From: a virus
Lineage: Duplodnaviria; Heunggongvirae; Uroviricota; Caudoviricetes
Strand: one strand, 5' to 3'
Length of the DNA: 17,049 bases
IMG/VR virus record: IMGVR_UViG_2671181094_000003
In this document: piece after piece, positions 1 through 17,049 of the stretch
Layout of the letters: each line of letters begins with the position of its first letter
Numbering within the stretch: position 1 is the first letter of the stretch
The notes under the pieces: generated by a model
What the model was told of the DNA's origin: nothing
Databases searched by the model: none
The model's input: the letters and a program-made list of their open reading frames with translations, nothing else
Program-made: the position numbers and the translations under genes

Positions 1-256
1 CGGCCAGCCATCCGTCATCCATATCACCACGTCAAAGGGTGACAGCAGGCTCATAAGACGCCCCAGCGTCGCCATAGTGCGCTCACCGAATACGTGCGCA
101 ACAACCGTCTTCCGGAGACTGTCATACGCGTAAAACAGCCAGCGCTGGCGCGATTTAGCCCCGACATAGCCCCACTGTTCGTCCATTTCCGCGCAGACGA
201 TGACGTCACTGCCCGGCTGTATGCGCGAGGTTACCGACTGCGGCCTGAGTTTTTTA
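1..256 (-). CDS. insB: IS1 InsB' reading frame, partial (runs out of the window); made as InsAB' transposase by -1 frameshift at the A6C motif
   Basis: Position inside IS1 downstream of insA. A6C run (minus-strand TTAAAAAACTC) at about 247-257. Coordinates approximate. Confidence 0.75.
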
Positions 257-506
257 AGTGACGTAAAATCGTGTTGAGGCCAACGCCCATAATGCGGGCT
301 GTTGCCCGGCATCCAACGCCATTCATGGCCATATCAATGATTTTCTGGTGCGTACCGGGTTGAGAAGCGGTGTAAGTGAACTGCAGTTGCCATGTTTTAC
401 GGCAGTGAGAGCAGAGATAGCGCTGATGTCCGGCGGTGCTTTTGCCGTTACGCACCACCCCGTCAGTAGCTGAACAGGAGGGACAGCTGATAGAAACAGA
501 AGCCAC
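231..506 (-). CDS. insA: IS1 InsA (transposition inhibitor/DNA-binding protein), 91 aa, GTG start
   Basis: Translation [40 protein letters not shown]... is the familiar IS1 InsA with its zinc-finger Cys motifs. Confidence 0.95.
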
Positions 507-561
507 TGGAGCACCTCAAAAACACCATCATACACTAAATCAGTAAGTTGGCAGCATCACC

Positions 562-766
562 CATGCCGGGCTAAAAATTTTTCAAATGAATCACGTTCAT
601 TCGCCTCAACTTTGAAATCACAGGTGAAAACGCGCAGAGAATGATTAAGTCCATTTGGACTTCGTTGCTCATAACCATCGCCAAATCTTACAGTTTTTAT
701 CGATGGTTTATTTTCTGTTTTCATTCCATCCTCTGGTAACCAGTGAAATTCTTCCGTATTAGCCAC
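562..766 (-). pseudogene. Lambda gpM-like minor tail protein, 5' fragment truncated by the IS1 insertion at 561/562
   Basis: N-terminus ...FHWLPEDGMKTENKPSIKTVRFGDGYEQRSPNGLN resembles the lambda gpM N-terminus (…VRKVRFGDGYSQRAPAGLN, from memory). The ORF runs straight into the IS1 terminal repeat. GTG start overlaps the tape-measure stop. Confidence 0.75.
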
Positions 767-3700
767 TTAACATTCCCCCATCACGTCGCATATTTAACAG
801 ATTGCCCTGCACCCGCTGATCAACCATCCCCATAAGTGCTTTTATTGCCTGAGGGCCAATCTCTCCATTCTGGCCGTCATTTTGAATAGTGATTTGGTAT
901 ACAGGGGCATAGGTAATATCTCCGCCTCCATTACCACTTTTACTATTAATAGCTCTGACACCAAGAGAACCATCGGAAGTTCGTGTTAATGGCATAATGG
1001 CTTCCGGACCAGCCTCACCAAAAACACCAGCCCCTTTTGCAAAAGCAAAAAATTGCGGGGAATCATAAATACCGTTCGAATACATGTTCAATGACGGAGA
1101 CTCATAAACACCGCCCTTTGCATTCGGAATAAATTTACTAATAGCACTCCCGATAGTTCCTAAAATCCCCCCAGAAGAACTGTTACTAATGCTGTCGAAA
1201 ATCCCAGTAATTGAAGCCTTTAATGCTATTCGACTAAGATCCGAAATCACGGAAGTAGCGAAAGAACGAAAATTTGCCTTGCCTGTCGTGACAAAATCAC
1301 CCAGCGCATCGGTCATTCCATCAAACATCTGAGTCGTGGTTGATTTTATCTGCTCACTGATATCCTTAGTGTCATCCAGCCAGTTATTGAATCCCTGGGA
1401 GGCACCACTAACCCAGTCTCCTGCCTGAATATCGAGCTGCTCGTTTTTCTGTCTGACAATGTCTTTTTCTCGTTCCAGAGCATCATTCAGAGCCTGCATT
1501 TTCTCCTGAAAAACATGATTTGACATCCCACGGGATTTATCTGCATAGTCACGTTCAAGTTGCAGACGCTGATTGTTATATTCACGTTCAATCCGCAGTA
1601 ATTCCTGCTGGCGTTGCTGATTTTTATCGCCAACCCCATAACCAGCAATCTGAATATCATACCCCTGTTGACGATTATCAATCGAAGCCTGCAATGAATC
1701 ACGCCATGCAGCTATTTCGGCGGATTCCTTGATTAGCCTGTTATTTTTTTCAATCGCAACATTTTTCTCCATCAACGCGGTTATTTCTTCCCGGTGTAAG
1801 AGAAGCGATTTCTGATCCTGGGTTAATTTCGATGACGGTCGTGACTCCAGGTTGGCAATCTGCTGACGCCACTTAACCAGTTCCTGTTCAGTGGAACTTA
1901 ATTTAACGGTTAATTCAGTTTGTGAACTTAGTAACGCATTCTGTTGATTCAGATGATCAATCATTCGTTGGGCAGCATCATCCGAATAACCTTTCGCCTT
2001 TGGTTGCTTTGGATCTTTATAACGCTCATTTATTTGAGCGATAAGATTATTATATTCTTCCTTTGAATACTGACTCTTTAGCTTTTCCAGTTTTGCAAGT
2101 TCACTAGCTCTCTGCTGCTCCCGGGTCTGATATTGTTTTGAAAAGGCATCTGCTCTCTGTCTGAGTTCAATTCCTTCCTGTTGTCGCTTGTTGTAATCGT
2201 TTATTGATGAATTTAGTACGTCCTGAGCAATTTTTTCTGCTTGAAGTGCGCCCAATTGCTGCTTTAATCGTGCCAGCCTTTTATTTTGAGCTCCGCCATC
2301 TCCAATGCCACCTAACCCGAAAACTCCGGGTCGGGTATTTTTTTCTATTTCATCAATTTGACGGAGAACATCTGAGATTTTTTGATCAAGGGAGGCCTCA
2401 CGGCCAATATCCAGCATGGAATCCCATGCCCATTTTGCGGAGTCTGCGACAGCTTTCCATGCAGTCTCAAGATAACCAAGATTTTCTTTAATCTGGTTGG
2501 TGCGCTGGATCATTGAGGATGAGTATGCTTCTGTCGCAATGCGGGCGGCCTCCTGCTGGTTCCCTTCATCCTGTAGCGCCTTAATCTGGTTATAAGTCGC
2601 AATTGTCAGAAAATGGTACTGATCATTAAGTTTTGATATGGCACTGACAGGATCCTTTGCAATTTCATTGAAGTCATTAACCAGTTGTTCGGTTGATATT
2701 CCTGTTACTTCGCTCGTTTTTACTATCGCTGTCGTCACTTGCTCCAGCGAACTGCTCGCTACCTTTCCCGAACGCACAAGCTGGTTTAATACTGCCGCCG
2801 CAGCGCCAGTTGTCGAATCAGCCGCATTCCCGGCACGTTGAGCTATATCGGCCAATTGCCCGCTGGTTGTCCCCAACTGATTTCCGGTAAGAATAAGAGA
2901 TTTATTAAATTCGTCCTGCTCCTGAGAGCCTTTATAGTAAGCCAGCCCTAAGACGCCAACGGCTGCTGCGGCCAGGGTAAAAGGATTAATTAATCCCAGC
3001 ACATAAGAACCAACACCTTTGATCGCCGGGCCAATCCCACCGAACATATCTTTTAGCTGGCCGCCCTGCTGCATTAACACCATAAAAGGCGACTGACCAG
3101 TGGACAACCCAACAACAATATCCGTCATTTGTGCAGGCAACATGCGCATAGCAAAAGCCGTTTGTTTTGCCGACATTCCGGTTTTGCTTAATTGAGATTG
3201 AGTAACCTCAAGCTCACTCCGCATAGCACGAAGTTTTCCAGAAAGTTCCTCATACATTTCAGGAGAGAGCATCCCCTTAGCTTTTGCTTCATTGAGCTGT
3301 TTCTGTTGTTCTACCAGACGATTAAAAGCAGTTCCGACAGGGTCAAGTTGAGCAATCAGACGTTGCAAAGCAGCAACCTGTTCATCATGCGCTTTTGCTG
3401 CTTCTCGCTCTGCCTGAGCCTCTCCGGTAAGCTCTCGCCGTGTTTCCTGTATTTTTCGGCTATAATTCTCAAACTGAGAACCATTTATTTTCCCGGATGC
3501 AAACGCAGCATTAAGTTCATCCTGCTGTTGTTCAAGATTTCTTAGCGCCGCAGCCAGAGGGTCGATCTTGTCCAGCATTCTTTGAAAGGCCTGAGCCTGC
3601 GCTTCCTGCTGGGCGGCAGCAAGTTTTCCGGCCTTCTCGGCTTCTCTCTGCGCTTGCGCAACCCCGCTCAATTCCTCTGTGGTTTCATTAAGTTTACGGA

Positions 3701-3992
3701 CAAGAAATTCATATTCTTCTTTATCAATAAGCCCTTTATCGAAAAATTTCTTTAATTCAGAATAGCGTCGACCGACAGTATCAATTGCGGCACCAACTGG
3801 ATCAATAGCTGCTTTTAATTTTGCGAGCGCGTTCTTCTCATCTTCTGTTGCCTTAGTCACTTTCCCTGCGCTATTTGCAGCAGTTTCCCCGGCCTGCGTC
3901 ATTTTGACTAATGAGGAGGTCAGATTGTCAGCATTATTTTTTGCTCCAGTGCTATCAATAATTATTGCGAGACGCGAGGTTTGCTCTGCCAT
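759..3992 (-). CDS. Tail tape measure protein, lambda gpH homolog, 1077 aa
   Basis: Uninterrupted 1077-aa ORF with AGGAG SD 9 nt upstream of the ATG. Segments [11 protein letters not shown]…[17 protein letters not shown] and the C-terminal …[14 protein letters not shown]…[10 protein letters not shown] match recalled lambda gpH motifs. Position follows the G/T chaperone pair. Confidence 0.92.
3164..3806 (-). repeat. Three tandem ~60-80 aa repeats in the tape-measure N-terminal region (residues about 63-277)
   Basis: Protein repeats start [14 protein letters not shown]…, [14 protein letters not shown]…, [14 protein letters not shown]…, each with a G-x-I/L…Y…KL…EL…AQA core. DNA coordinates derived from residue numbers. 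Confidence 0.6.
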
Positions 3993-4005
3993 TTATTAAA
4001 ACTCC

Positions 4006-4037
4006 TGACAACAAAAAACCCACCGCGAAGTGGGTTT
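4006..4037 (-). terminator. Candidate intrinsic terminator just upstream of the tape-measure SD
   Basis: Minus-strand RNA AAACCCAC-UUCGCG-GUGGGUUU followed by UUUGUUGU. Lies in a 165-bp non-coding gap between the T-frame stop and the tape-measure start. Confidence 0.45.
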
Positions 4038-4157
4038 CAGGCGACATAATAGTAGATATAGCGATTACGAGGCCACGCAATGCTTTTCTCCAGGAGCATC
4101 ATCGATTTAATTAAAGACACCATCACATCTCTGTAACAGAGTGTACGTAATTAACAA

Positions 4158-4478
4158 CTACACACACTGCTCCTGAAAATACTGGTCATCCAGTGCAAAG
4201 ATCACTGCTTCAAATTCATCGCGCTCAATCAATACCGGATGAGTGGCTAAATATTCATTTATCTCTGTCAGAGATAAAGGCAAAGGCACCCCAGCCATTC
4301 CAGCATAACGTCGGGCACGGGATATTACCGAATAGGCGTACAACAACTCCTTAAGCACCGGGTCTATTTCTGGTTCCGGTATCGGTGGCAACCTGAGTTT
4401 TTCTCGCTTCCATCTTGCCTTTTCCCCCCTTTCTCCCCCGAACTCCGATAACCACCGCTGGGCAGCTATGGCTTTTTT
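4158..4478 (-). CDS. Tail assembly chaperone T segment, expressed only as a G-T fusion by -1 frameshift (no independent start)
   Basis: The -1 frame from the heptamer at 4472-4478 is open through ...AIAAQRWLSEFGGERGEKARWKREKLRLPPIPEPEIDPV... to the stop at 4158. Matches the conserved G/G-T arrangement of long-tailed phages. Confidence 0.65.
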   Translation of the reverse strand, partial: KKAIAAQRWLSEFGGERGEKARWKREKLRLPPIPEPEIDPVLKELLYAYSVISRARRYAGMAGVPLPLSLTEINEYLATHPVLIERDEFEAVIFALDDQYFQEQCV

Positions 4479-4915
4479 ATCGTATCCTGCTTCTGCTGCT
4501 CTTTACCCTGGGCGATGCTGGCTGCTTCTGCAAGGATCTGCCAGTACAACTCTGGATTCTGCTTAAGCAGCGCGATCCCTCGTTCTGCCGTATATTCCAG
4601 TGCAACCTCAACACCATTAACCAGTTCACCAACCCCTTTCCAGTCTTTCAGCAGATAACGAGCGGCATTATCAATGAGTAAATCATCAACAGAATCCACC
4701 TCGGAAACCTTTGAAATATCAAACTCCTTCGTTCCGACGTGCAAACTGGCATCCATTTTCTCAATGTGGCGACGGATTAATGCATTACGGGAGCGATACT
4801 GATCGTTATCGCTGCTTGCCACCAACAGTTTTAACCCGTCTACAGGTTTTAAGTCCTTCATTGGCGTAAACCAGCGTTCTCCACCAATGATAATTTTCTG
4901 ATTAAGAATAAACAT
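4466..4915 (-). CDS. Tail assembly chaperone, gpG-like
   Basis: Position between major tail and tape measure. Ends at the slippery heptamer and TAG. Start placed at the second ATG (4915), which has a GAGG SD 6 nt upstream; the ORF-track start at 4927 is also possible. Confidence 0.7.
   Translation of the reverse strand: MFILNQKIIIGGERWFTPMKDLKPVDGLKLLVASSDNDQYRSRNALIRRHIEKMDASLHVGTKEFDISKVSEVDSVDDLLIDNAARYLLKDWKGVGELVNGVEVALEYTAERGIALLKQNPELYWQILAEAASIAQGKEQQKQDTIKKP
4472..4478 (-). other. Programmed -1 ribosomal frameshift slippery heptamer A_AAA_AAG
   Basis: Minus-strand ...ACG AUA AAA AAG CCA UAG: the heptamer A AAA AAG sits two codons before the G stop in the correct zero-frame phasing. 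Confidence 0.65.
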
Positions 4916-4975
4916 CCATAACCTCATTCAATGCGTCCCCCTGTAGGGCAGTACCACAGGAGGAATAACGGAAAA

Positions 4976-5938
4976 TCAACTAATCGCCTCAGCACTGGCT
5001 TTTGCGATCACGGCAGCCGGGGAATTTTTTTTTCTGGTTATCGTAGGTGCTTCATCTGCTGCGGTAATGCTCAATTGAACCTGGATAATGTCGCTATTAC
5101 CCCCATCAGGCCATTCACCTGACACCTGAACCTTCGGGAAACTGAAAGTGTATGCCCCCTCTCCATTCGAAAGCGTGAAGCTGAACGGAACTGTTTCTCC
5201 AGTCAGTGTTTTACTCCAGATTTCCCACGCGGCTTTAGACCATGAAAGCGTCACCGTACCGGACGGTGTAAAAGTAGTCGGAATATTTGCTCCTGCATAA
5301 GGCGAGCCAGTCCCGATACAACGCTGTGTCTGGAGTTTGTTATCGAACTGAATATCAAAACTGTCGATACAAAAACCGTTACCTCCGGCAACACCATTCA
5401 GGCTTACTGCTGAAACCTCCTTAAACGAATAACGTAGCTTTCCTGCACTATCCACAGGTTCGCCTTTGATAAAATTCGTATCATCGGCCTTTGATTCCCA
5501 GTCCAGTCCGGCAAAGGTTACGGTCGCTGTAATATCGCCGTCGTTAGGGATCTGCATTTTCCATGAGCCAACCTGCGCTCCTCTGACGACAGAGGCAATT
5601 CCGACATCGGACGCATAGGTCGCCAGAGAAAATGTTATTCGCTCATTCCCCATTGTCAGAGAATCGCCTGACCATTCCGCGCCGAAACAGGATGCAAGAA
5701 AATCATCATGTTGACCCCAGCGAAATTTGGTACCAACATCACCGCCGACATCCACAGTGCCAGGCGTCGCCCCCTGAGCCATCCGGGAGCCACCAATCTC
5801 ATTATTTTCGCCTTTATTCTGGGTGGGTTTTACTCCCCAGCTTGTGCGTTTTAATAAACTCCAGTCACCACTTGCTGGCGTAGTGCCTGCAACCGTCTCC
5901 CGGATAAATGCCGAGATAACCTTTGCACCTGAACTCAC
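4976..5938 (-). CDS. Major tail (tube) protein, 320 aa, GTG start
   Basis: Position immediately upstream of the G/G-T pair. Strong SD (TAGGAGG) 6 nt before the GTG. Gly/Thr/Ser-rich beta-type composition typical of tail tube proteins. Not similar to lambda gpV by eye. Confidence 0.75.
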   Translation of the reverse strand: MSSGAKVISAFIRETVAGTTPASGDWSLLKRTSWGVKPTQNKGENNEIGGSRMAQGATPGTVDVGGDVGTKFRWGQHDDFLASCFGAEWSGDSLTMGNERITFSLATYASDVGIASVVRGAQVGSWKMQIPNDGDITATVTFAGLDWESKADDTNFIKGEPVDSAGKLRYSFKEVSAVSLNGVAGGNGFCIDSFDIQFDNKLQTQRCIGTGSPYAGANIPTTFTPSGTVTLSWSKAAWEIWSKTLTGETVPFSFTLSNGEGAYTFSFPKVQVSGEWPDGGNSDIIQVQLSITAADEAPTITRKKNSPAAVIAKASAEAIS

Positions 5939-5964
5939 AGGAGCCTCCTATGTCATTAATTGCG

Positions 5965-6357
5965 CTAGAGCGCGCGATATGGAATTTGAAGATTAAGCTG
6001 GAACCAGCCATTCTTTTCGCCAACGGCTATTGAGGAAACAGCCTGGTAACTGAGACGATCGTCATCCTGAAACTCAAACAGTTCCCGCAATTTATCGGCT
6101 GTCTCAGTAATGAGTTTTGAACCAGAACCTGCGGGGACAAATAACTGAATAATGATTATCCCCGTGCGATAAACAATCGGCCCCGCGCCAATTTCATTAA
6201 CTCCAGCCTGCCCGGGAATATTACTTAACCGCGCCCAGATTAACTTACCGGAAGGATCGAACGTTGGCGCGTTCGGATACAATACGTCTTTTCCATCAAT
6301 AATCGTCTGTGCCGTCATTCTGGAAATAACCGTATTTCTGATTTCAGTAAACGTCAT
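5965..6357 (-). CDS. Putative tail terminator/tail completion protein, 130 aa
   Basis: Gene order (directly upstream of the major tail gene) and size. ATGA start/stop overlap with the upstream gene. Assignment by synteny only. Confidence 0.5.
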   Translation of the reverse strand: MTFTEIRNTVISRMTAQTIIDGKDVLYPNAPTFDPSGKLIWARLSNIPGQAGVNEIGAGPIVYRTGIIIIQLFVPAGSGSKLITETADKLRELFEFQDDDRLSYQAVSSIAVGEKNGWFQLNLQIPYRAL

Positions 6358-6734
6358 TTGTAAACCTGTAAAACACCATGAAAAGCGTTGGCATACACGC
6401 CAGTTGGCGCTTGTTGTGAATGACCGTTTTCAAGAGCCTCTGCATAAGGAAGGTTATTCTGGATATAAATAACTCCGTAATTTGCAGCTTTCGAAATAAC
6501 CCCGATCCCACGCTGAACAGCAATCGTACCGTTCGGATCCACGTTATCAGATATACCAATATCGGGATGCTGTAACGACACCAGGTTGTTATTTCTGAAA
6601 CGTCCGGTATCAACCGGAGCAGCAATATCAATAGCAGTAAGAATCTGAATAGCGATGTAGCGAATCTTCAGCCCTACATCTTCCTCAATCATCCCGGCAA
6701 ATATTGACGGTTCTATATCCCATGCCTTTGCCAT
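6354..6734 (-). CDS. Putative neck/tail-component protein, HK97 gp10-like, 126 aa
   Basis: Synteny plus the NNLPYAEALENG segment recalled as characteristic of the HK97 gp10-like family. TAAATG junction with the upstream gene. Confidence 0.5.
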   Translation of the reverse strand: MAKAWDIEPSIFAGMIEEDVGLKIRYIAIQILTAIDIAAPVDTGRFRNNNLVSLQHPDIGISDNVDPNGTIAVQRGIGVISKAANYGVIYIQNNLPYAEALENGHSQQAPTGVYANAFHGVLQVYK

Positions 6735-7118
6735 TTACGCTCTCCTTAACTGGATAGAGTAAACTGATGCGGAAGGATCTACACTTGCTGTAATTACCTC
6801 GTATCGTTGTAACTGCCTTGATACAGGATCATAAATCTCAATAATATGGTCGACAGCTGGTTTATCCGTAACCTCGCATACCAGAGCGGTTAATTTAAGG
6901 TCACCATGCAAAATATTAATCCCATCAATTCTGCCCAGCTTATAACGTGTCAACACGCCTCGCCCGGTATAGATTGCGGTGGATTCGCCGCCAGTTTCCG
7001 TCACAGGATCCCAGTGCCGGTGCGTAACGTAAGAACCAGAAAAATCACTCACGGCGTCCGCTAAATCCTCATCAAAAGCAGCGGCAACCTCTGACTGAAT
7101 CTCTTCACGAAGCCCCAT
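6735..7118 (-). CDS. Putative head closure/head-tail joining protein, 127 aa
   Basis: Synteny between the capsid and tail genes. TAATG overlap with the upstream gene. Confidence 0.45.
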   Translation of the reverse strand: MGLREEIQSEVAAAFDEDLADAVSDFSGSYVTHRHWDPVTETGGESTAIYTGRGVLTRYKLGRIDGINILHGDLKLTALVCEVTDKPAVDHIIEIYDPVSRQLQRYEVITASVDPSASVYSIQLRRA

Positions 7119-7513
7119 TATCCCCCCCTCACAACCCTGACTTGTGAGCGACTAAGTCCGTACGGTTTCAGCAGTGCTATCGCAAGCTGTAAATCGGGTT
7201 CAAGCAATGCAGTGCTGTTTGCTGGCAACTCAGAAAATGATTTCGATACACTGACCCCGTCAGCCGACACGGCTTTACTGATAACAACGCCAGAATCATT
7301 TTTCTGCTGAAACAACTTACCGAATGAGGCAATTCTGGCTGCATATGCTCCCGCAAGTTTTACCTCTTCCGGAATACGGGATGGGTTAATTTTCAGGTTG
7401 AAGCCATTAAGCCAGGCATTAGCCATTAAAACAGCTTTATTTTTAGCGTTCTCACTCGTCCAGGCGTTCCCAAACGCATTATCAACGTCATCACAGGTCA
7501 CGTAAGTGATCAT
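7118..7513 (-). CDS. Putative head-tail connector/adaptor protein, 131 aa
   Basis: Synteny: first mid-sized gene after the capsid gene. Tightly packed with neighbours. Confidence 0.45.
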   Translation of the reverse strand: MITYVTCDDVDNAFGNAWTSENAKNKAVLMANAWLNGFNLKINPSRIPEEVKLAGAYAARIASFGKLFQQKNDSGVVISKAVSADGVSVSKSFSELPANSTALLEPDLQLAIALLKPYGLSRSQVRVVRGG

Positions 7514-7516
7514 GTG

Positions 7517-7693
7517 TTACTCCTGAGTTTTCCAGCCCATAGCCTTCCAGTTGTCAACTTCATCAGGATGAACATTAGCGATAGTTGGTGCGCCGGGAAA
7601 CATCTGATAATCGGTCACCATAACCACTAACTCAATTTGCGTTTTTTGTGCGGCTTCACGCTGTGCTCTTTGCTCTTTAGTTAATCCGGCCAT
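7517..7693 (-). CDS. Small hypothetical protein, 58 aa (MAGLTKEQRAQREAAQKTQIELVVMVTDYQMFPGAPTIANVHPDEVDNWKAMGWKTQE), absent from the ORF track
   Basis: Hand-translated ORF that fills the gap between the capsid-gene terminator and the connector gene. G-rich SD-like run before the ATG; its stop is 3 nt from the next start. Confidence 0.35.
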   Translation of the reverse strand: MAGLTKEQRAQREAAQKTQIELVVMVTDYQMFPGAPTIANVHPDEVDNWKAMGWKTQE

Positions 7694-7702
7694 ATGCCCC
7701 CC

Positions 7703-7725
7703 ATTAAAAATGGGGCCGAAGCCCC
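7703..7725 (-). terminator. Intrinsic terminator downstream of the major capsid gene
   Basis: Minus-strand GGGGC-UUCG-GCCCC followed by AUUUUUAAU, starting about 10 nt after the capsid stop codon. Confidence 0.5.
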
Positions 7726-7735
7726 GTTTGAATGT

Positions 7736-8875
7736 TTAACCAAGAATCAGACAACCATGTGCCGGCTTCACTGATGAAACACCCCATGCCAGTCCAACTT
7801 CATAGCGCACCTGGCGATACTGACGATACAGTGCAATCTGGAACGTAATCCCTGAAATCGGGTCCGTAACATTCATTACATCATCAGCATTATCGCCACC
7901 TTCCGGCATTGCCGGAGTACGGGATGCCAGCAGAAACGCGTTGCGATCAAACGCCATATTTGCCGTAAAGGCCCCAACAACTGTGATGGCAGTATCATCG
8001 GCCAGATCCTGACGCAGTCCGGGCGCTGCAAGAGTAATCAGATTGCTGGTCGCTGCTGCCACAACATACTGATTCGGATCACCAGCGAACGTAACAATCT
8101 GACCTGCAGAAATACTCCCCGAACCAGTATCAATGGAAATAAGAACATCGCCTTCTTTTTTCTCTCCATTCACGAGATAACCAGTTGCAGCAACCTTTGG
8201 CGCTCGTTTCACACCTGCCGAACTGTGAATATTGAATCCCTCCAGACGCCCCAACACGCCCTCACGCAGTAGCTGTTCAGTGCCGGATTCATTCACTTTA
8301 AACAATACAGACTGTTTTCCGCGCAAATTAGCAATGGCAGTGGAGCCAAGCACCATCTGCAGATCGGTTGTCGGTGCGCCGTTATCCTCCAGAACCTGAC
8401 GAGCCAGAGCAGCATCAGAAAGATCATCTTTAACACCAAACGGCGTTGTCCCTGCGGTTCCCACGGCGCGGGAAGCACCGAAATACAACGCACCAAGATC
8501 AGCCTCAACCTCGTTTGCAAGGGCGCGAAAAGCCTGCTTGAACTGATCAGCCAGAATGGTGTTGTAAGTCCCTGAAGGGCCAAGAGCCAGTTGTTCTTCA
8601 CCATTCCATTTAACCGGTGCCATTTTGGATTTAGTAATTTTTACATCAACAGCGCCAATATTTTGATCACCGGTATTCGGAGCTGACGGCCCCGGTACGA
8701 TATCTTCGGTTTTCGCCTCAGGCGCAACTGGCGCGGTTACCGTCTGATCTTTTGCTGCGGCGTCAGCTTTTGCGTTTTTTGCTACCGCAGGGATAAAACC
8801 TACCTGCTCACGGGATACAACATCCAGGGCGGTATAAATAGTCGGGATCAACCCGGTCAGGGTATTTCCAGCCAT
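7736..8875 (-). CDS. Major capsid (coat) protein, ~380 aa from the ATG at 8875
   Basis: Position after the scaffold gene. AAGGA SD about 11 nt upstream of the ATG at 8875; the ORF-track N-terminal extension to 8968 has no SD. Internal ...GQIVTFAGD... and the C-terminal ...IALYRQY...GLAWGV... loosely resemble P22-type coat protein (recalled, weak). Confidence 0.8.
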   Translation of the reverse strand: MAGNTLTGLIPTIYTALDVVSREQVGFIPAVAKNAKADAAAKDQTVTAPVAPEAKTEDIVPGPSAPNTGDQNIGAVDVKITKSKMAPVKWNGEEQLALGPSGTYNTILADQFKQAFRALANEVEADLGALYFGASRAVGTAGTTPFGVKDDLSDAALARQVLEDNGAPTTDLQMVLGSTAIANLRGKQSVLFKVNESGTEQLLREGVLGRLEGFNIHSSAGVKRAPKVAATGYLVNGEKKEGDVLISIDTGSGSISAGQIVTFAGDPNQYVVAAATSNLITLAAPGLRQDLADDTAITVVGAFTANMAFDRNAFLLASRTPAMPEGGDNADDVMNVTDPISGITFQIALYRQYRQVRYEVGLAWGVSSVKPAHGCLILG

Positions 8876-8973
8876 AATTAAATATTCCTTAAAAATTTGC
8901 GTAATTGTGAATAGATGGAGTAATGAGCTATCCAGCCCTGACACCAGCTCCCATCCGGAAGCTGACAAATGTG

Positions 8974-9738
8974 TTAATCAACGATTGTGATACCGTCTTT
9001 CAATGCGTTTTGCTTACCTGCAACATCCAGTGCATCAAAAGCAGAGCGTTTCATCGTTTTCTGACCAATATCATGCTGTGTCGGACGGGAGCCGCCGCCA
9101 TTGTTGCCACTGGCTTTCAGGATGTAGTCTTTCTGAGGGTAATTTTCGACAAGGAACTCCAGCGCCTCATCAAACTGCGCCAGTTCGCCAGGCTTCGCGC
9201 GGGAATAAATTTTGTTGCCGGAAGCGTCATAAGCAACGATCCTCCCTTCTTCCACTTTGAATGCCTGCCCGAAGCGGGCTTGTAATAAATCTGCCGGGAT
9301 CGCAATTTTATCGGCAATATATTTTGAACCCGCAAAACTACCGCCAATCATAGAATCGTAAAGCTGCTTCTCCAGCATCTGAGAGCGTTGCTTTTCTTCA
9401 TCTAATTGCTGCTGAAAATTTTTCGTAATTTCTGCCTTAACCTGGTCAACCTGTCCCGCATCGAGCAGCTTTTTCTGGTCGATTTTTGACAGCATTTCCA
9501 GTGCCTCGATCGCCTTCTTCGGGTCTTCGATAGCGGCAAACTTAGCCAGTTTTTCCTCTGCAGCTTCTTTAGCCAGGCGATGATTTTTTGCCTCGCCATT
9601 AAGCTCTGTAATTTTTTTTGTCGCCAGCGGTGCATCGAAGCCAATTTCTTTACCATCGTCGTGCACATAAACTGGCAGGCCAGCAGTATCAATTTCTGCG
9701 TATTGTTTTCCGTTAATCTCGACCGTTTTCAGTTTCAT
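8974..9738 (-). CDS. Putative scaffolding protein, ~254 aa from the ATG at 9738
   Basis: Position between the head morphogenesis and capsid genes. Highly charged, helix-forming composition (AKEAAEEKLAKFAAIEDPKKAIEALEM…). The ORF-track start at 9810 would overlap the upstream terminator, so the internal ATG is preferred. Confidence 0.55.
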   Translation of the reverse strand: MKLKTVEINGKQYAEIDTAGLPVYVHDDGKEIGFDAPLATKKITELNGEAKNHRLAKEAAEEKLAKFAAIEDPKKAIEALEMLSKIDQKKLLDAGQVDQVKAEITKNFQQQLDEEKQRSQMLEKQLYDSMIGGSFAGSKYIADKIAIPADLLQARFGQAFKVEEGRIVAYDASGNKIYSRAKPGELAQFDEALEFLVENYPQKDYILKASGNNGGGSRPTQHDIGQKTMKRSAFDALDVAGKQNALKDGITIVD

Positions 9739-9795
9739 ATTAGTACCTGGTTTAAGTCTTCCGACAGTTACGCTGCTCACCATCCGGATCGCAGC

Positions 9796-9822
9796 AATAA
9801 AAAAGGCCACCCGAAGGTAGCC
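9796..9822 (-). terminator. Intrinsic terminator between the head morphogenesis and scaffold genes
   Basis: Minus-strand GGCUACC-UUCG-GGUGGCC (7-bp stem including one G-U pair) followed by UUUUUUAUU, about 20 nt after the upstream stop codon. Confidence 0.6.
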
Positions 9823-9842
9823 TGTTGTAATAAATGATTTAT

Positions 9843-10958
9843 TTAAATCCCTGCTTTTCTGAATACCTGTGCATCACGCTCACGGAGCTGCTTCAGCGTC
9901 AGCCATTCGCCTTTATCGGTGTAAAATTCATCTGGCGACATACCACCATCCCGAATCAGCTTTGCTCGGGTTTCCCCCACAATCTGTTTTTGTCTGGTGT
10001 AAGGCTGACGCAAAAACCATTCCCTGTAGGTTGTATCTCCGGCCACCACGCCATCCATGCTGGCCCGCTCAGCCGGGGAAATATCGCGAACATCAATACC
10101 CAGTTCCTTCGCTGATTTCAGAATGAACGTTTCCGTTGAGCGGCAGCAGAAATGAATTTTTCCCGGCCCCTGCAAATAAGGCACGCTGTGACCTACAGGT
10201 TTATTATTCAGCGTATATTTGAGGCGATCCCTGATTCGACATTGTGGCGTAGTACGATTATCAAGCGTTGATAACCATTGCTTACCCTTAATCAAATCAT
10301 TATTCGCGCTGGCAAAACTCTCACGGGCAGTAGCAGCAAGATGTCCAACCGCTGTTTTTGCAATGCTGGCCGCATTAGCCCGGCTCATCTGCAATGCACC
10401 ATCCTGAAATCCCTTACTGACATGTCCCCGAATTTTTCTTGCGATCTGCTCATTGGTATCCCCCAGCAAAAAACCCTGACGCACTGTATTTGTTATGCGT
10501 CTGAGCCGATCCGCCTCAAGATCTGAGGCCCACTCACTGAGCAGTCGTCCCTGAAATGGTCGCGCCATTGCAGCGGCATAAAGTGCATCAGGAGAGATAC
10601 CAACCAGAGGGTGAACATCAGCAACAAAATCAGGTAGCATAGAATCAAACAGACTTAACTGATAACCAGCCTCATAAATTGCCAGCTCGTTCAGCTCTCC
10701 GGAGAGACTGGTAAACATGCTGTTAATAGCAGTGCGGTTAACCTCTCTGACGCTCGCCAGAAGTGACTCCAGGCGCTTAACGGTAAAACTACCTGGATCG
10801 AGGCTGTCCAGTGCTATCAGCAGGCGAGCAGTAAGTTCCGCATCGCTGTCATTCAGTATTTTCACCATTCTGGCAGCCACGCCAGTGCTATAGCGGGATA
10901 TCCAGACTGCATGAGCAATTGATTCATCACGCAGCCGTTCATTCACGGTTTGCATCAT
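9843..10958 (-). CDS. Head morphogenesis/minor capsid protein, Mu F / SPP1 gp7-like, 371 aa
   Basis: Position directly after the portal gene, overlapping its 3' end by 20 nt. Size and the conserved-looking ...TTPQCRIRD... region fit this family (recalled). Confidence 0.7.
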   Translation of the reverse strand: MMQTVNERLRDESIAHAVWISRYSTGVAARMVKILNDSDAELTARLLIALDSLDPGSFTVKRLESLLASVREVNRTAINSMFTSLSGELNELAIYEAGYQLSLFDSMLPDFVADVHPLVGISPDALYAAAMARPFQGRLLSEWASDLEADRLRRITNTVRQGFLLGDTNEQIARKIRGHVSKGFQDGALQMSRANAASIAKTAVGHLAATARESFASANNDLIKGKQWLSTLDNRTTPQCRIRDRLKYTLNNKPVGHSVPYLQGPGKIHFCCRSTETFILKSAKELGIDVRDISPAERASMDGVVAGDTTYREWFLRQPYTRQKQIVGETRAKLIRDGGMSPDEFYTDKGEWLTLKQLRERDAQVFRKAGI

Positions 10959-12345
10959 TGATTTCCATCAGCATTACACTCTGATTTTTTAATTCATCGA
11001 TCACTTCCTCTGGACGGGAATCCTGATCGATAAATTTCAACGCCTGCAACACCCGAACCGCATCAATCTGACGTATATCACCGCCCTGACGCAATGACTG
11101 AACAGCCAGCGCGGAGGATGAGTCAAACACCTGGGCAGATACATCCAGTTCAGTGCGCACATCCACATTGCCACCGCAACTCTCTCCGATCCATTCCGCC
11201 ATTATCTGGAGAATATTATCGAGGGCATCTTCGAGGGAGTTCGCCATTGTATAAAGCGGCGAGTTTTCCTGCATTCGCTCTTCATTAGTCTGATCAACAG
11301 ATTTGGTGGATGTATTTTCAGCACGCAGAAGTTTAGCGCCGGCATGACGCATCTGATTTTCCAGCTTCTCAAGTGATGTTTCGCCAGATTCTATCGCTGC
11401 GCCACTATGTTCAACATATTCGAGGCCATTTTTTGTTCTGTCCTCAAAAATCGTAGCGGTGGATGCACCAACCGTCAGTTCTTCATTCCTGTCCAGCCCG
11501 TAGGCCACCAGCAATGGAACGCGGGCAACATGAAGAATATTGTCCTGCTCGCTCTGGCTTTGCCAGTGCTTGATATTCAGCAAGCCAAGATTAAGCAATG
11601 GCGGTGTACCACGCATAAATCCTGTTTTCTTCGTGTACAGTGTTACCAGAGGAATATCATCACGGCTGGTATTCCATGACTCATGAAGCGTCCAGACAGA
11701 TTCGCCATTAGTGCCTTCGCTACGTCGATAAATTTCAACTCGACGGGGCATAATATGGCGGATCTGCTCCACCTTCTTCTGCCCGAAATCATCACCATCA
11801 ATAATGATGACCTCTTTTATACGCAAATCAGTGAGAACAACTTTCCCTTTTTCAACTTTCGATTTCCATCCAATAACCTGGCGTGGATTCAGCATCGTAA
11901 CGTACGGACGACCACCGGTCGCGTTTTCATCGGCTTTTGTCCGAATCTCTTTCATATCCGTTCGTGGATAGTCCACCAGCGCATGTGCCACACCATACTG
12001 AAATGCGAGGCTGAAAAATTGCTGCGCCCACACATCCAGTCGGCTCCCCTCCATGTCGATATTTTCTGCATATTCCCTGATTTTTGCCGGCGTTTCCTCA
12101 CTCAATACTGTCGGCTCTGCAAATATGCGCCCAATATTTTGCTTGATGCTTTCTTCATACACAGGAAGTAGCGTAGCCACAGACAGGCGTTTTTTATAAG
12201 CGTCTTCATCTTCGTTAGGCCATTTTGGGAGATAATTTTCCCCCTGCCTGCGCATTTCAAGCGTACCGCCCATCAGTGCGTCGTTAATATCCCACGCCTC
12301 CAGCATATCGTTATAGTCGAGGTTGGGTGTTGATATATCAGCCAT
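10939..12345 (-). CDS. Portal protein, 468 aa
   Basis: Position immediately downstream of the large terminase (TAA, 2 nt, then ATG). Size typical of portal proteins. Confidence 0.75.
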   Translation of the reverse strand: MADISTPNLDYNDMLEAWDINDALMGGTLEMRRQGENYLPKWPNEDEDAYKKRLSVATLLPVYEESIKQNIGRIFAEPTVLSEETPAKIREYAENIDMEGSRLDVWAQQFFSLAFQYGVAHALVDYPRTDMKEIRTKADENATGGRPYVTMLNPRQVIGWKSKVEKGKVVLTDLRIKEVIIIDGDDFGQKKVEQIRHIMPRRVEIYRRSEGTNGESVWTLHESWNTSRDDIPLVTLYTKKTGFMRGTPPLLNLGLLNIKHWQSQSEQDNILHVARVPLLVAYGLDRNEELTVGASTATIFEDRTKNGLEYVEHSGAAIESGETSLEKLENQMRHAGAKLLRAENTSTKSVDQTNEERMQENSPLYTMANSLEDALDNILQIMAEWIGESCGGNVDVRTELDVSAQVFDSSSALAVQSLRQGGDIRQIDAVRVLQALKFIDQDSRPEEVIDELKNQSVMLMEINDANRE

Positions 12346-12347
12346 AA

Positions 12348-13658
12348 TTAAATCCGAAGTGATGTGCCTCTTCCGGTCGGTTTGACAATAGGGAATTGCT
12401 TAACGATGAAATAACCTCCGGCATCATTCGGGTGATCATTGCCAGATTTTTTATCAGGCTCCCCCTTCTCATCCCAGACCTGTTGCTCCAGAGATTCGGC
12501 ATATAACGGGCAACGCTTCACATTAACTTTATAGCGACGCTCACCATTGGCATTGCAGAACATTGCATTCATTGAGTTAACGCGATCTTTTACTGGCGGG
12601 TTCGAGCTGTTCACCACAACGTTAAAACCAGCCTGCTTAAGCTGGGCTATATCCGTCGTACTTGCGTTACTTGATTTTCTGGAATCCCCGGAAGCATCTG
12701 GATAAATATAAATTTCCCTCACTTTCCGGTAATCATTCCCATCATACAGCCAGAAGCGTTCTTTAATGATGCGGATCATATCCGGCGTATCGTAGGCATT
12801 GATGATTTCAGTTACCGCACATGGAAGCCCCAAACGCAGCACATGGACGATTCCCGCCATCTTTCCAACGTTAAAATCCATCCCAATATAAATCGGCTCC
12901 CCTGGCTGCTCCACTTCTTCGCAATTATTCAGTTTCCGGTCAAACTGATGGTAAACAGTACCACTTGTCAGGTTAGTAAACTGTCCTCGAAGATAGGCTT
13001 TAATCAGCTCTGGAGGGTATGATTCAAGAAGCGAAGGAATGTAATCTGCTGGCAGGTTCTTTTCATTATCGAAAGTAGATGCCTGCACCAGACCATACAG
13101 TGAGGCCAGCTCTGTTTTTTCACGCACGGCTTTAACAAACTGCTCGTAGACAAATTTGAATCCTTCCGGCGTGGTTGTAACGTCAATACCGTTGCGAAGT
13201 CCATCAATCTTATAACGCATACGTGCAATTATCTTGCGCCACGCCGTTCTGGCTTTTTCCTTCGGCAAAATGTCCAGTTCATCCACCAACGCATTACCAA
13301 TTTTGAAACCGACGATCGTTTGTGGCTTCTCCATCGATCTGCAGATAGTGGTTCCCCGATACTGGCGTCCGTAATAAAAGTGAACCTCTTTATTTCCCTC
13401 ATTAATTTTTACGTTCAATCCCCAGTCAGCAGCAACTTCTTCCACTGTAGGGTAAAAAATATCGCGAATTTGGGGATACGTTGGCGCAAAATATCCCTGA
13501 TTTATACCTGGATGCTCCCAAATCCCCTTGCATATGCCGCCACACCCAACCCATGTTTTGCCCGAGCCAAAACCAGCAATATAGGCTTTAAATTTATGGG
13601 GCATTGAAAGAAATCGCGCCTGAGGCACATTAAGCGTCGGAGAGATCATCTTCATCAC
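12348..13658 (-). CDS. Terminase large subunit, about 435 aa
   Basis: Walker A-like GFGSGKTW near the N-terminus. Position between the small terminase and portal. Start is one of three clustered ATGs (13658/13655/13649) just after an AAGGAG SD, overlapping the small-terminase 3' end. Confidence 0.9.
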   Translation of the reverse strand: MMKMISPTLNVPQARFLSMPHKFKAYIAGFGSGKTWVGCGGICKGIWEHPGINQGYFAPTYPQIRDIFYPTVEEVAADWGLNVKINEGNKEVHFYYGRQYRGTTICRSMEKPQTIVGFKIGNALVDELDILPKEKARTAWRKIIARMRYKIDGLRNGIDVTTTPEGFKFVYEQFVKAVREKTELASLYGLVQASTFDNEKNLPADYIPSLLESYPPELIKAYLRGQFTNLTSGTVYHQFDRKLNNCEEVEQPGEPIYIGMDFNVGKMAGIVHVLRLGLPCAVTEIINAYDTPDMIRIIKERFWLYDGNDYRKVREIYIYPDASGDSRKSSNASTTDIAQLKQAGFNVVVNSSNPPVKDRVNSMNAMFCNANGERRYKVNVKRCPLYAESLEQQVWDEKGEPDKKSGNDHPNDAGGYFIVKQFPIVKPTGRGTSLRI

Positions 13659-14724
13659 TCCTTACTCTGGCATCAACCACATTAATTTTGATCGCCACAG
13701 GCTGGGGATGTTCATTATCTTCCACCGTTTCGATCTCTTTGCGCAGCTTCTGGTTTTCCATTCTGCGCCGTTCAATTTCCAGTTCCTGTAGCCGCTTATC
13801 TGCACATAAAGCCCCGCCAGCAGAAAGCAAACGCAACAATTCACGCCGGGCGGCAGCCTTATCCTCCAGCAGGATCTCAACGCCGAATTTTCCGAATTTT
13901 GCCCCTGCATATAATTGCCGCGCATCCCCATCAAGCAGAGTGGTATCAGCCATATAAAGCTGTCCCGTTCCCTCACCGCAGCACTTCGGGCAGTCCGGAT
14001 TGGGTATGGCGTTATCAACAAAGCCGAGGCCTCCATATTCCGGTTCGGGTTTGCCATCTCTGGAAGCCTGCGCCGCTGCCTTGTCGAATTCTGCTATATC
14101 GCGCCACTGGTAGAGATGATTCTCGCCCCAGCAATAACGGCAGTTAACACGGCGAAATTGTGCAAGCTGATTGGGGTCGGCCAGGACAATGGCCATCAAC
14201 TGACTCACTAGTAAATCCAGGTCTGCGGTATAGCGTTTCTGGTACTGATTGCGGAAGTAGCTGATAGCGCGAAAAACCCTGGCATTTCTAAGCATACGAC
14301 TGGCGTTGCTGTTAGCTGTCGCACCTTGCCCCTCATAACCGGCTAGTCGGTACGCCTCTGTCGGCTTTTTACCCTGAGCAACAAGCATCGCAAACTTAGC
14401 CTGCTGGTCAGAAATGCCGAATTCATCGGGACAGAACGAAAATTCCTCCGCGTCGCCCTCATTCAGGCCCGCATCGAATACTGGCTTTTTTTCCTGAGAT
14501 TTTTCGTTCCGCTTTTGTGCAGTCTGCGCAGATTTTTTCTGCGCACTTTTTTGCGCAGTTTTGCGCATTTCTGTCTGCGCATTTTTCGGAGTTTTTTTGA
14601 TGTAACGACGGGCTGTTGCGTAATTCAGTCCCCTTGCTTCACACCATGCCACCGGAGATATACCGGAGCGGGTGTATTCAGCAATATACTCCTGCTGCAA
14701 CGCCCCCCAGTCCGGTCTGCTCAT
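13630..14724 (-). CDS. Terminase small subunit, unusually long (364 aa): N-terminal HTH, Lys-rich linker, Terminase_2-like core, Cys4 cluster
   Basis: The segment ISDQQAKFAMLVAQGKKPTEAYRLAGYEGQGATANSNASRMLRNARVFRAI matches the recalled small-terminase signature (Q..F…TEAY..AGY…A…LL.N..V..AI). Position is directly upstream of the large terminase. Confidence 0.75.
   Translation of the reverse strand: MSRPDWGALQQEYIAEYTRSGISPVAWCEARGLNYATARRYIKKTPKNAQTEMRKTAQKSAQKKSAQTAQKRNEKSQEKKPVFDAGLNEGDAEEFSFCPDEFGISDQQAKFAMLVAQGKKPTEAYRLAGYEGQGATANSNASRMLRNARVFRAISYFRNQYQKRYTADLDLLVSQLMAIVLADPNQLAQFRRVNCRYCWGENHLYQWRDIAEFDKAAAQASRDGKPEPEYGGLGFVDNAIPNPDCPKCCGEGTGQLYMADTTLLDGDARQLYAGAKFGKFGVEILLEDKAAARRELLRLLSAGGALCADKRLQELEIERRRMENQKLRKEIETVEDNEHPQPVAIKINVVDARVRSDEDDLSDA
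14525..14581. repeat. Five copies of the palindromic hexamer TGCGCA interleaved with T-tracts, inside the small-terminase coding region
   Basis: TGCGCA at 14525, 14540, 14552, 14562 and 14576, with T-runs of 4-7 nt between them. Encodes the low-complexity AQK-rich linker (…KTAQKSAQKKSAQTAQK…). Confidence 0.5.
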
Positions 14725-14727
14725 CAG

Positions 14728-14937
14728 TTAGTCCTGATTTTTATCCACCCTGAGTAGTTCGCGCAGAGCAAAGGCATCCCCTTTTCTGGCAAGCTTAAAC
14801 AATGCCGCTCGTAACTCGGCTTCACCTTTCGCTCTGCCCTTACGGATGGCCGCATAAAAATCTGTCATTGCTTCCCGATTTTCTTTCAGTCGGTTCAGAT
14901 CAACATCCAGAACGTCAGCGATTTGTTGTGCAGTCAT
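14728..14937 (-). CDS. Small hypothetical protein with a predicted helix-turn-helix, 69 aa from the ATG at 14937
   Basis: ORF MTAQQIADVLDVDLNRLKENREAMTDFYAAIRKGRAKGEAELRAALFKLARKGDAFALRELLRVDKNQD. Overlaps the 3' end of the upstream gene. The ORF-track start at 14979 would overlap by 65 nt. Confidence 0.45.
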   Translation of the reverse strand: MTAQQIADVLDVDLNRLKENREAMTDFYAAIRKGRAKGEAELRAALFKLARKGDAFALRELLRVDKNQD

Positions 14938-15847
14938 CCGGCACGCTGCCAGAGACTCGACTTTCGAATACGGAATCATTTGTCACCCCCATTGATATGC
15001 AGGGTGTCTTCTTCCTGTATTTTTCGTGAAGGATTTTTACTGCAGCGTTGTTCCAGGTGACCTGATGGTGAATGCGTTTATGGCTGGCACCCATCAGTGA
15101 AATTTTTACGCACGACGGCGCATACATGACGGAGTAAAAACTTTTAACGTAGGTTCCGGAATCCAGATACAGCTCGGTCATTCCGCCGCTGTTTTTCTGC
15201 GTCTGTTTCTGCCCTAACTGGACAGCACCGATCGTCATAAACAATTCACCACAGCGACCGAGATTCGTGTACGTATTCACATCCTCGTTAATGCGCCCCA
15301 TGAATGAGAACGGTCGATCAACCGAACAGATAAAGCTGTTCATTGCCTTGCGTTTCACCCACGAAGCATGGCCGCCATTGTCACCAAGAAAATCCCCGCC
15401 CTGCGACATAGCGATGGAAAGAGCAGGTATTGATTCGTAGTACGCCAGCATTTCAGAAAGGATCGCATCCAGTTTCCTTATCGGAAAATAGGCCTGGTCA
15501 TAGTTGCGATCCACCCGAAACTGGAACTCGTGATAATCATCATCGAGCTGAATGAAGTATTTACACCCGACCAGTTTTGCCAGGTCAAAACAGGCATTAC
15601 GGGCGTAAAAAATTGAGCGGCGGTCACAGAAATTATCGGCTTCGTCAAAACGACTGGCGATATCGGCTTTGGAAAACACCAGCACCTGTTCACCAAATTC
15701 AGCCATGTACTGATGCCGTGTCTTATCTTCATCATCAACAACGATAAAAATTTTCCCGGTATAGCCAGCACGACGCAACGTCCGGTAAGTCAGAACTTTG
15801 TCTGGTCGCCCGTGAGTCAGAATAAAGGCGCAAAAATCATCACGCAT
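14915..15847 (-). CDS. Hypothetical protein, ~310 aa, with GT-A glycosyltransferase-like motifs; substrate unknown
   Basis: ATG at 15847 has an AGGAGG SD and overlaps the ParB-like stop in ATGCGTGA. Motifs FILTHGR…IFIVVDDEDKT and YFIQLDDDYHE resemble the GT2 signatures (…PTYNR…VVDDGS.D, DxD). No obvious transmembrane segment. Assignment from motifs only. Confidence 0.5.
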   Translation of the reverse strand: MRDDFCAFILTHGRPDKVLTYRTLRRAGYTGKIFIVVDDEDKTRHQYMAEFGEQVLVFSKADIASRFDEADNFCDRRSIFYARNACFDLAKLVGCKYFIQLDDDYHEFQFRVDRNYDQAYFPIRKLDAILSEMLAYYESIPALSIAMSQGGDFLGDNGGHASWVKRKAMNSFICSVDRPFSFMGRINEDVNTYTNLGRCGELFMTIGAVQLGQKQTQKNSGGMTELYLDSGTYVKSFYSVMYAPSCVKISLMGASHKRIHHQVTWNNAAVKILHEKYRKKTPCISMGVTNDSVFESRVSGSVPDDCTTNR

Positions 15848-16631
15848 ATTCCTCCTCCTCACCACCATGCATGATCTCCACCATGCGCTGCGTCATCCGG
15901 ACAAATCCATTTTCAATAGCCTGCTGATAATCAATGATCACCAGCGCCGACTCCTCGAAAAAACACTGAATTTCAGCGGGGGCGTGAGCGTAATAGTCCG
16001 CAATTCTGCTGAAATTAAACACCGTGTGACGTTCTGCCGCACACAGGAGGAATTTCTCAATATCAGGCTCAAGGGACGCCGAACGTATCCGGCTGATCAG
16101 CTCCTGAGTTTTCGTATCGTCGTACAGTTCACTGATATCCGGTTTACCGCCCGACGGCTCATAAACAGGCGTATCAATTTTCGTCGTATACGGCTCCTCC
16201 TCATTTCCTGTACCGGGCACAACATCCGTCAACAGTTCATCAATTTCTGTCGGGATGAAGCCTGTCAGGGAGACATCAAAATCAGCATTGATTAGGTCCG
16301 ACAGCTCCATCCGCAACAGATCTTCATCCCAGCCAGCATTCATCGGCAGGCGATTATCTGCCAGGCGGTACGCCTTTTTCTGCTCATCCGTCAAGCCAGA
16401 CAGAACAATGACCGGAACAGAATCCATTTTGAGCATTTCAGCCGCCATAACACGACCGTGACCCGCAATAATTTCGCCCTTTTCGTCAATCAGCACCGGA
16501 TTAGTCCAGCCGAATTGCTTAATACTTTCTACCAGTTGTGCCACCTGCTCAGGGCTGTGCGTCCTGGCGTTGTGCGCATACGGTGACAATTCTTGTAATG
16601 GGCGATAGACTATCTTTAATTTCTCGCTCAT
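15840..16631 (-). CDS. ParB-like N-terminal-domain (ParB/Srx fold) protein, 263 aa
   Basis: N-terminal region …YRPLQELSPYAHNARTHSPEQVAQLVESIKQFGWTNPVLIDEKGEIIAGHGRVMAA… has the ParB-N pattern with a G-H-G-R motif. AAGG SD 6 nt before the ATG. Confidence 0.8.
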   Translation of the reverse strand: MSEKLKIVYRPLQELSPYAHNARTHSPEQVAQLVESIKQFGWTNPVLIDEKGEIIAGHGRVMAAEMLKMDSVPVIVLSGLTDEQKKAYRLADNRLPMNAGWDEDLLRMELSDLINADFDVSLTGFIPTEIDELLTDVVPGTGNEEEPYTTKIDTPVYEPSGGKPDISELYDDTKTQELISRIRSASLEPDIEKFLLCAAERHTVFNFSRIADYYAHAPAEIQCFFEESALVIIDYQQAIENGFVRMTQRMVEIMHGGEEEEYA

Positions 16632-16640
16632 ACAGCCTTG

Positions 16641-16682
16641 CTTTATGAATAAAACGCACCCCAGCAGCCAGTGCTACTGGGG
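16641..16682 (-). terminator. Candidate stem-loop/terminator-like structure in the leader upstream of the ParB-like gene
   Basis: Minus-strand CCCCAGUAGC-ACUG-GCUGCUGGGG (10-bp stem with one G-U pair) followed by UGCGUUUUAUU. The U-tract is offset 3 nt from the stem. Confidence 0.3.
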
Positions 16683-16752
16683 ACGGAGGTGTTGCTGGTA
16701 AAGTTAGGTATTGGATCAATGAGTGAGTCAACATAATATTAAACTCACAATT

Positions 16753-17049
16753 GGTGATGCTGCCAACTTACTGATTTAGTGTATGATGGTGTTTTTGAGG
16801 TGCTCCAGTGGCTTCTGTTTCTATCAGCTGTCCCTCCTGTTCAGCTACTGACGGGGTGGTGCGTAACGGCAAAAGCACCGCCGGACATCAGCGCTATCTC
16901 TGCTCTCACTGCCGTAAAACATGGCAACTGCAGTTCACTTACACCGCTTCTCAACCCGGTACGCACCAGAAAATCATTGATATGGCCATGAATGGCGTTG
17001 GATGCCGGGCAACTGCCCGCATTATGGGCGTTGGCCTCAACACGATTTT
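16753..17049 (+). mobile_element. IS1 insertion sequence, partial copy cut by the window end; inverted relative to the left copy
   Basis: IS1 terminal repeat GGTGATGCTGCCAACTTACTGAT at 16753-16775; the downstream sequence is the reverse complement of the left copy. Confidence 0.95.
16808..17049 (+). CDS. insA: IS1 InsA, partial (C-terminus beyond the window)
   Basis: GTG start at 16808; the DNA is the reverse complement of the left-copy insA region. Confidence 0.9.

Follow-up and report, generated by a model that had tools for sequence, protein, structure and literature searches.

A copy of the insertion sequence IS1 has very likely inserted at codon 69 of the gene for a gpM-type distal tail protein in a Rac-type lambdoid prophage of Escherichia coli, and in every scenario of this account the M gene is broken. 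The window, that is, the whole stretch of DNA analysed, is the entire contig CXYS01000066.1 (17,049 bp) of the draft assembly GCA_001269125.1. In the history that we propose, IS1 would have transposed into the M-type gene of a prophage resident in an E. coli strain, and the broken gene would now encode a 69-aa product only. The window contains the following features:

1–561, minus strand: partial IS1, nucleotides 1–561 of 768, ended by the contig edge (alignment to IS1A; InsA and DDE_Tnp_IS1 domain matches on record for its open reading frames).
231–506, minus strand: insA of the left IS1 copy, 91 aa, intact (Pfam Zn_ribbon_InsA, 76 bits; HTH_Tnp_IS1, 107 bits).
539–561, minus strand: left terminal inverted repeat of IS1, 23 bp, adjoining the tail gene (exact match to GGTGATGCTGCCAACTTACTGAT in reverse complement).
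557–766, minus strand: truncated gpM-like distal tail open reading frame, comprising 68 native codons, a junction Gly codon and an IS1-derived TGA (open reading frame, Pfam and homologue alignment).
562–570, no strand: presumed 9-bp IS1 target CATGCCGGG, the first native bases beyond the IS1 end (the 9-bp length is assumed; the other flank lies outside the contig).
759–3992, minus strand: tape measure protein gene, intact, 1077 aa, sharing 8 bases with the start of M (matches to Pfam TMP_2, TMP_4 and Tape_meas_lam_C on record; same length in the relative L001).
3993–16752, minus strand: other late genes (YdaY-like chaperone; tail tube, terminator and completion; head-tail connector; capsid; scaffold; Mu-F-like; portal; large and small terminase; ParB/Srx, ynaK-like).
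16753–17049, plus strand: second partial IS1, nucleotides 1–297, inverted with respect to the first and ended by the other contig edge (its left repeat starts at 16753).

The sequence ATCAGTAAGTTGGCAGCATCACC, at window positions 539–561, is the exact reverse complement of the 23-bp left inverted repeat of IS1, GGTGATGCTGCCAACTTACTGAT, which is found without mismatch at 561–539 on the minus strand and again at 16753–16775 on the plus strand. Just inside the left end lies insA with its zinc ribbon and HTH, for which the matches to PF03811 and PF12759 are well over the cut-offs. Window positions 1–561 correspond to IS1 nucleotides 561–1, and differ at 2 positions from a full 768-bp IS1A element of another E. 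coli genome; the contig stops at IS1 nucleotide 561, and only the start of the DDE_Tnp_IS1 region lies within the window. The exact terminal repeat, the presence of insA and the identity of 559 of 561 bases to IS1A are shared with the 768-bp insertions of the IS1A/IS1B type in E. coli and Shigella. Nothing is distinctive in comparison with typical IS1 insertions, and just 561 bp of the first copy and 297 bp of the second were assembled here.

The boundary between IS1 and native DNA falls between positions 561 and 562, which is where the first-pass annotation had set it: the terminal repeat at 539–561 is exact, and every match to the flank in a set of 5,426 complete E. coli genomes begins at window position 562. 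In 711 of these 5,426 genomes the flank is identical from position 562 and has no IS1 at that point. The insertion site is an AT-rich stretch surrounding a GC-rich 9-mer, a setting that fits the known target preference of IS1, whose usual target duplication is 9 bp.

The open reading frame at 557–766 on the minus strand encodes 69 amino acids. Residues 1–68 are identical (68/68) to the start of a 112-aa "phage tail protein" (WP_000024051.1), the product of an uninterrupted 339-bp gene at the locus of E. coli 13P484A (L001). Codon 69 reads GGG (Gly) where the relative has GAA; its first base is native and its last two bases are from IS1, and the TGA stop at 559–557 lies entirely within the IS1 repeat. 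The truncation is thus directly observed, in agreement with the earlier description of a gpM-like frame cut by IS1 after about 68 codons, and alignment of the 68-aa fragment to full-length homologues places the breakpoint after codon 68 of 112. The exact 69-aa product is present in RefSeq as a complete "phage tail protein [Escherichia coli]" (WP_249437710.1), an entry in favor of a naturally short gene. This reading has next to no probability and is refuted by the 112-aa homologue, by a partial Pfam match that ends at profile position 65 of 108, and by the 711 complete genomes with the same flank, none of which has IS1 there; L001, the one relative examined, continues to 112 aa. Moreover, IS1 contributes the stop and some of the last sense codon. 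The homologues are not themselves short proteins of only about 68 aa, since those of full length measure 109–112 aa.

The family assignment to gpM, also made in the first-pass annotation, was verified at the level of domain profiles and of solved structures. The 69-aa fragment matches Pfam PF05939 (Phage_min_tail) with 65.4 bits (gathering cut-off 39) over profile positions 1–65 of 108, and the intact relative matches it with 109.8 bits over positions 1–108. A member of PF05939 would be expected to have a complete single domain of about 108–112 residues; the window reading frame lacks 44 residues, so that it is classified as a gene remnant, not as a functional member of the family. Residues 6–111 of the intact relative match the solved lambda "Tail tip protein M" (8IYK chain M and four further entries) with E = 2e-25, and lambda gpM (109 aa) aligns end to end with the 112-aa homologue. 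By this homology, the M gene of the window is assigned to the gpM-type distal tail protein genes. Compared with lambda gpM (PDB 8IYK, 8IYL, 8K35; PF05939), the window fragment is 42% identical, and its gene is placed alike: it follows the tape measure gene immediately, overlaps it and, in intact relatives, precedes L, K, I and J; the fragment differs in retaining just the first 68 of 112 codons. For the gene order tape measure, M, L, K, I, J, the upstream neighbor in the window is the overlapping tape measure gene, and the downstream part is visible in relatives only.

Lambda gpM is a distal tail protein that consists of a single beta-sandwich with all of its 109 residues ordered, and it forms a hexameric ring between the gpV tube and the gpL/gpJ tip (PMC10721106). 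With 44 of 112 residues gone from a ring protein that has one domain only, the gene is very probably inactive, and because these are the last 44 residues of a single beta-sandwich, the allele is predicted to be almost certainly null. We infer a loss of function on this basis, and the prophage would be unable to form tails without M supplied by another prophage. The first-pass annotation had presented the truncation as direct evidence that the locus cannot build a complete tail; the conclusion itself is reasonable from the truncation of M alone, but it depends on homology to lambda and is therefore not direct evidence.

At either end the contig runs into a multi-copy repeat, the kind of place where assemblers err, and a chimeric junction would leave M intact in the real genome. 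We regard such a chimera as very improbable and rejected it. An identical junction is found in the ENA metagenome contig L004, with 100% identity across 2,308 bp, and in L005, a Logan contig of another sequencing run, which differs at 4 positions in 1,588 bp; no k-mer that might cause a mis-join is common to IS1 and the M flank, and the exact 69-aa product is already a RefSeq protein. The junction is thus real and no assembly artefact, being shared by independent assemblies. Neither the exact left junction nor the right-hand IS1 junction of the window contig is present in any of the 5,426 complete E. coli genomes, and DNA scans of species-representative genomes, JGI metagenomes and IMG/VR did not return the left junction either. 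Nine places in the complete E. coli genomes reached a query cover of at least 80%, all of them consisting of two joined pieces with a span exceeding the query length; in L002 (H1), the sole one of the nine that was inspected, IS1 lies within the tape measure gene.

In relatives of the window, trkG, a ynaK-like ParB/Srx gene and ydaY are arranged as in the Rac defective prophage of E. coli K-12 and its fuller relatives. Because they place the block beside trkG, ynaK and ydaY, the element is assigned by its gene order to the Rac-type lambdoid prophages of E. coli. The neighboring genes share the minus strand and are consistent with a siphovirus late operon, and M-L-K-I-J-Lom are found downstream in intact relatives. 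The head genes are unlike those of lambda, with a P22-coat-like protein, a Mu-F-like protein, a DUF4055 portal and a T4-type terminase. The Rac prophage of E. coli K-12 is without the head and tail-shaft module, large parts of its structural genes having been lost, whereas the window prophage keeps this module complete. IS elements occur in the tail region of other Rac relatives as well, and related prophages decay at differing sites: in isolate F1053 the tape measure region contains both IS1 and IS5 (L002 4198–7909), and the tail tube gene is frameshifted in 13P484A (L001 10415–11378). The window copies of the tail tube and tape measure genes are both intact.

Two further observations concern the late genes. 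A gap of about 470 bp (3993–4465) separates the YdaY-like gene (4466–4927) from the tape measure gene, and its sole content is a 77-aa open reading frame with a TTG start (4158–4391, minus strand), which is probably the frameshift extension of a tail assembly chaperone of the G/GT type; its counterpart is unannotated in L001 too. At the start of the late block, a 317-aa open reading frame matches phrog_842, "beta-glucosyl-HMC-alpha-glucosyltransferase", and is labelled hypothetical in relatives; it adjoins the ParB/Srx (ynaK-like) gene (14915–15868 and 15840–16631, respectively).

In the relatives, the site taken by the second IS1 copy falls in the interval that separates trkG from the ParB/Srx (ynaK-like) gene, 17 bp downstream of the trkG 3' end. 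The contig is therefore a 16,191-bp late-gene stretch bracketed by inverted IS1 copies, with both left ends facing inward. The two copies differ at IS1 position 262, which is one of 297 shared positions. A repeat search extended the IS1 arms by 18 bp into both flanks; this was judged a chance extension and no real repeat. In the proposed history, the body of the first IS1 and the second, inverted IS1 in the trkG/ynaK-like gap would also interrupt the late operon, so that a polar effect on the downstream genes may be expected.

Both contig ends were located directly inside IS1, position 1 being the point where the assembly broke off, 561 bp inside the 768-bp repeat. A short-read assembler is unable to cross a multi-copy repeat, which accounts for the sequence stopping at this point, and a contig stop within IS1 is no evidence of missing DNA beyond it. 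Since the window ends inside IS1, the loss of L, K, I, J and the fibre genes cannot be read from it. The first-pass annotation had gone further, concluding that the tail-tip, host-specificity and fibre genes downstream were all missing or had been displaced; this statement is unsupported, as it was drawn from the end of the contig inside IS1 and other IS1 alleles keep those genes. In other draft genomes with IS1 elsewhere in the gene, contigs begin within IS1 and then read into the 3' portion of M, after which come L, K (a C40 peptidase), I and J; of two such contigs, L008 is the longer and reaches Lom and a side fibre gene (Stf), and L009 terminates inside J.

With a simple insertion, the remainder of M followed by L, K, I and J would be found about 0.78 kb farther along, in a different contig. 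Our working guess, for which the chances are about even or slightly better, is that IS1 went in by such a simple insertion, duplicating the 9 bp of CATGCCGGG, and that the downstream genes are located on another contig of the same assembly. This estimate derives from the usual behavior of IS1 and from the retention of the downstream genes in the other IS1 alleles.

A simple insertion predicts a reciprocal junction, composed of the right end of IS1, the duplicated target and the 3' part of M. This junction was modelled for duplications of 8, 9 and 10 bp. With a duplication of 9 or 10 bp the M remnant has no usable start codon, and with 8 bp it forms a 51-aa open reading frame with a TTG start. 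With the 9-bp duplication, a stop is found 60 bases inside IS1, and the remnant is callable only on contigs that start within the last 60 bases of IS1. A DNA pattern for the reciprocal junction, allowing duplications of 6–14 bp and either IS1 orientation, had no match in the species-representative genomes, the JGI metagenomes or IMG/VR; the known junction is equally absent from the same three collections, and these DNA negatives are therefore uninformative. At the protein level, a homology search of the protein collection with a chimeric IS1/M query returned no product of this junction, and none of 19 exact look-ups of predicted contig-edge products, covering both IS1 orientations, matched in that collection. 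The chimeric query did recover the analogous products of two other alleles, P0001 and P0002, which indicates that the method can work. In P0001 (contig L008) the right end of IS1 is joined near codon 41 of the tail gene, and in P0002 (contigs L009–L010) the left end is joined near codon 36. The protein negatives for the reciprocal junction are nevertheless weak evidence, because the remnant is without a start codon and the assembly runs 297–561 bp into IS1.

Alternatively, and in line with the first-pass annotation, IS1 may mark the end point of a deletion or rearrangement. The rest of M, L, K, I, J and the fibre genes could have been removed by a deletion adjacent to the element, or they could have been separated from the window by an inversion between the inverted IS1 copies. 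The inversion could have arisen by one-step duplicative inversion or by later homologous recombination, and would leave these genes about 16 kb away and opposed to the late operon. Deletion and inversion taken together are a serious candidate whose chances we place somewhat below even. The late block lies between two inverted IS1 copies with their left ends inward, which is the geometry of a duplicative inversion, and Rac-type prophages are known to lose structural genes in E. coli K-12. In addition, no product of the reciprocal junction was found in a protein collection that holds the 5' junction from at least three samples, but this negative can be explained technically by the missing start codon and by the extent of the assembly into IS1. 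A deletion, moreover, cannot be shown by a window that ends inside IS1, and the genes downstream are still in place in the other IS1 alleles of M. The difference at position 262 among the 297 shared bases also argues against fresh sister copies, as assembled, although IS copies from short reads are unreliable at the level of single bases. From the comparison with these alleles and the usual behavior of the element, we infer that the downstream genes more probably persist beyond a simple insertion, at the strength of the working guess given above.

The same tail gene is hit in other sequences. In the ENA metagenome contig L006 (711 bp), IS1 adjoins M at the same nucleotide in the opposite orientation (643–711), with the right repeat GGTAATGACTCC following ...GCCCGGCATG. 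The predicted product is the same 69 aa with a TAA stop, and the flank is 99.1% identical to the window, so that L006 seems to record a separate insertion into this target. The gene is broken otherwise in other E. coli genomes, by IS1 near codons 41 and 36, as described above, and in P0012 unrelated sequence of unassigned source is joined near codon 76. The 90% cluster of P0018 has shorter members of 64, 70, 72, 75, 84, 88, 90 and 98 aa; several of them are labelled partial and are contig-end calls, at least one, P0019, is an alternative start call, and not all short members of the cluster are real truncations. It may be speculated that the 9-mer CATGCCGGG is a true hot spot for IS1, hit independently both ways in different lineages, and that the 16.2-kb block is invertible or similar to a composite transposon, but we consider this combined proposal quite improbable. 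If it were true, the IS1-bracketed block could switch or mobilise a phage structural module.

Insertion of IS elements into prophage genes is a textbook route of prophage decay, and an IS1 in a prophage tail gene is ordinary decay of a Rac-type prophage, already known in kind. The truncated product is already in RefSeq, and the finding carries little biological weight. For annotation, it illustrates that a gene running into an IS element at the end of a draft contig is a broken gene, and does not imply that everything beyond is missing. The prophage should be scored as tail-assembly defective with at least two IS1 hits, and not as a prophage without a tail tip module.
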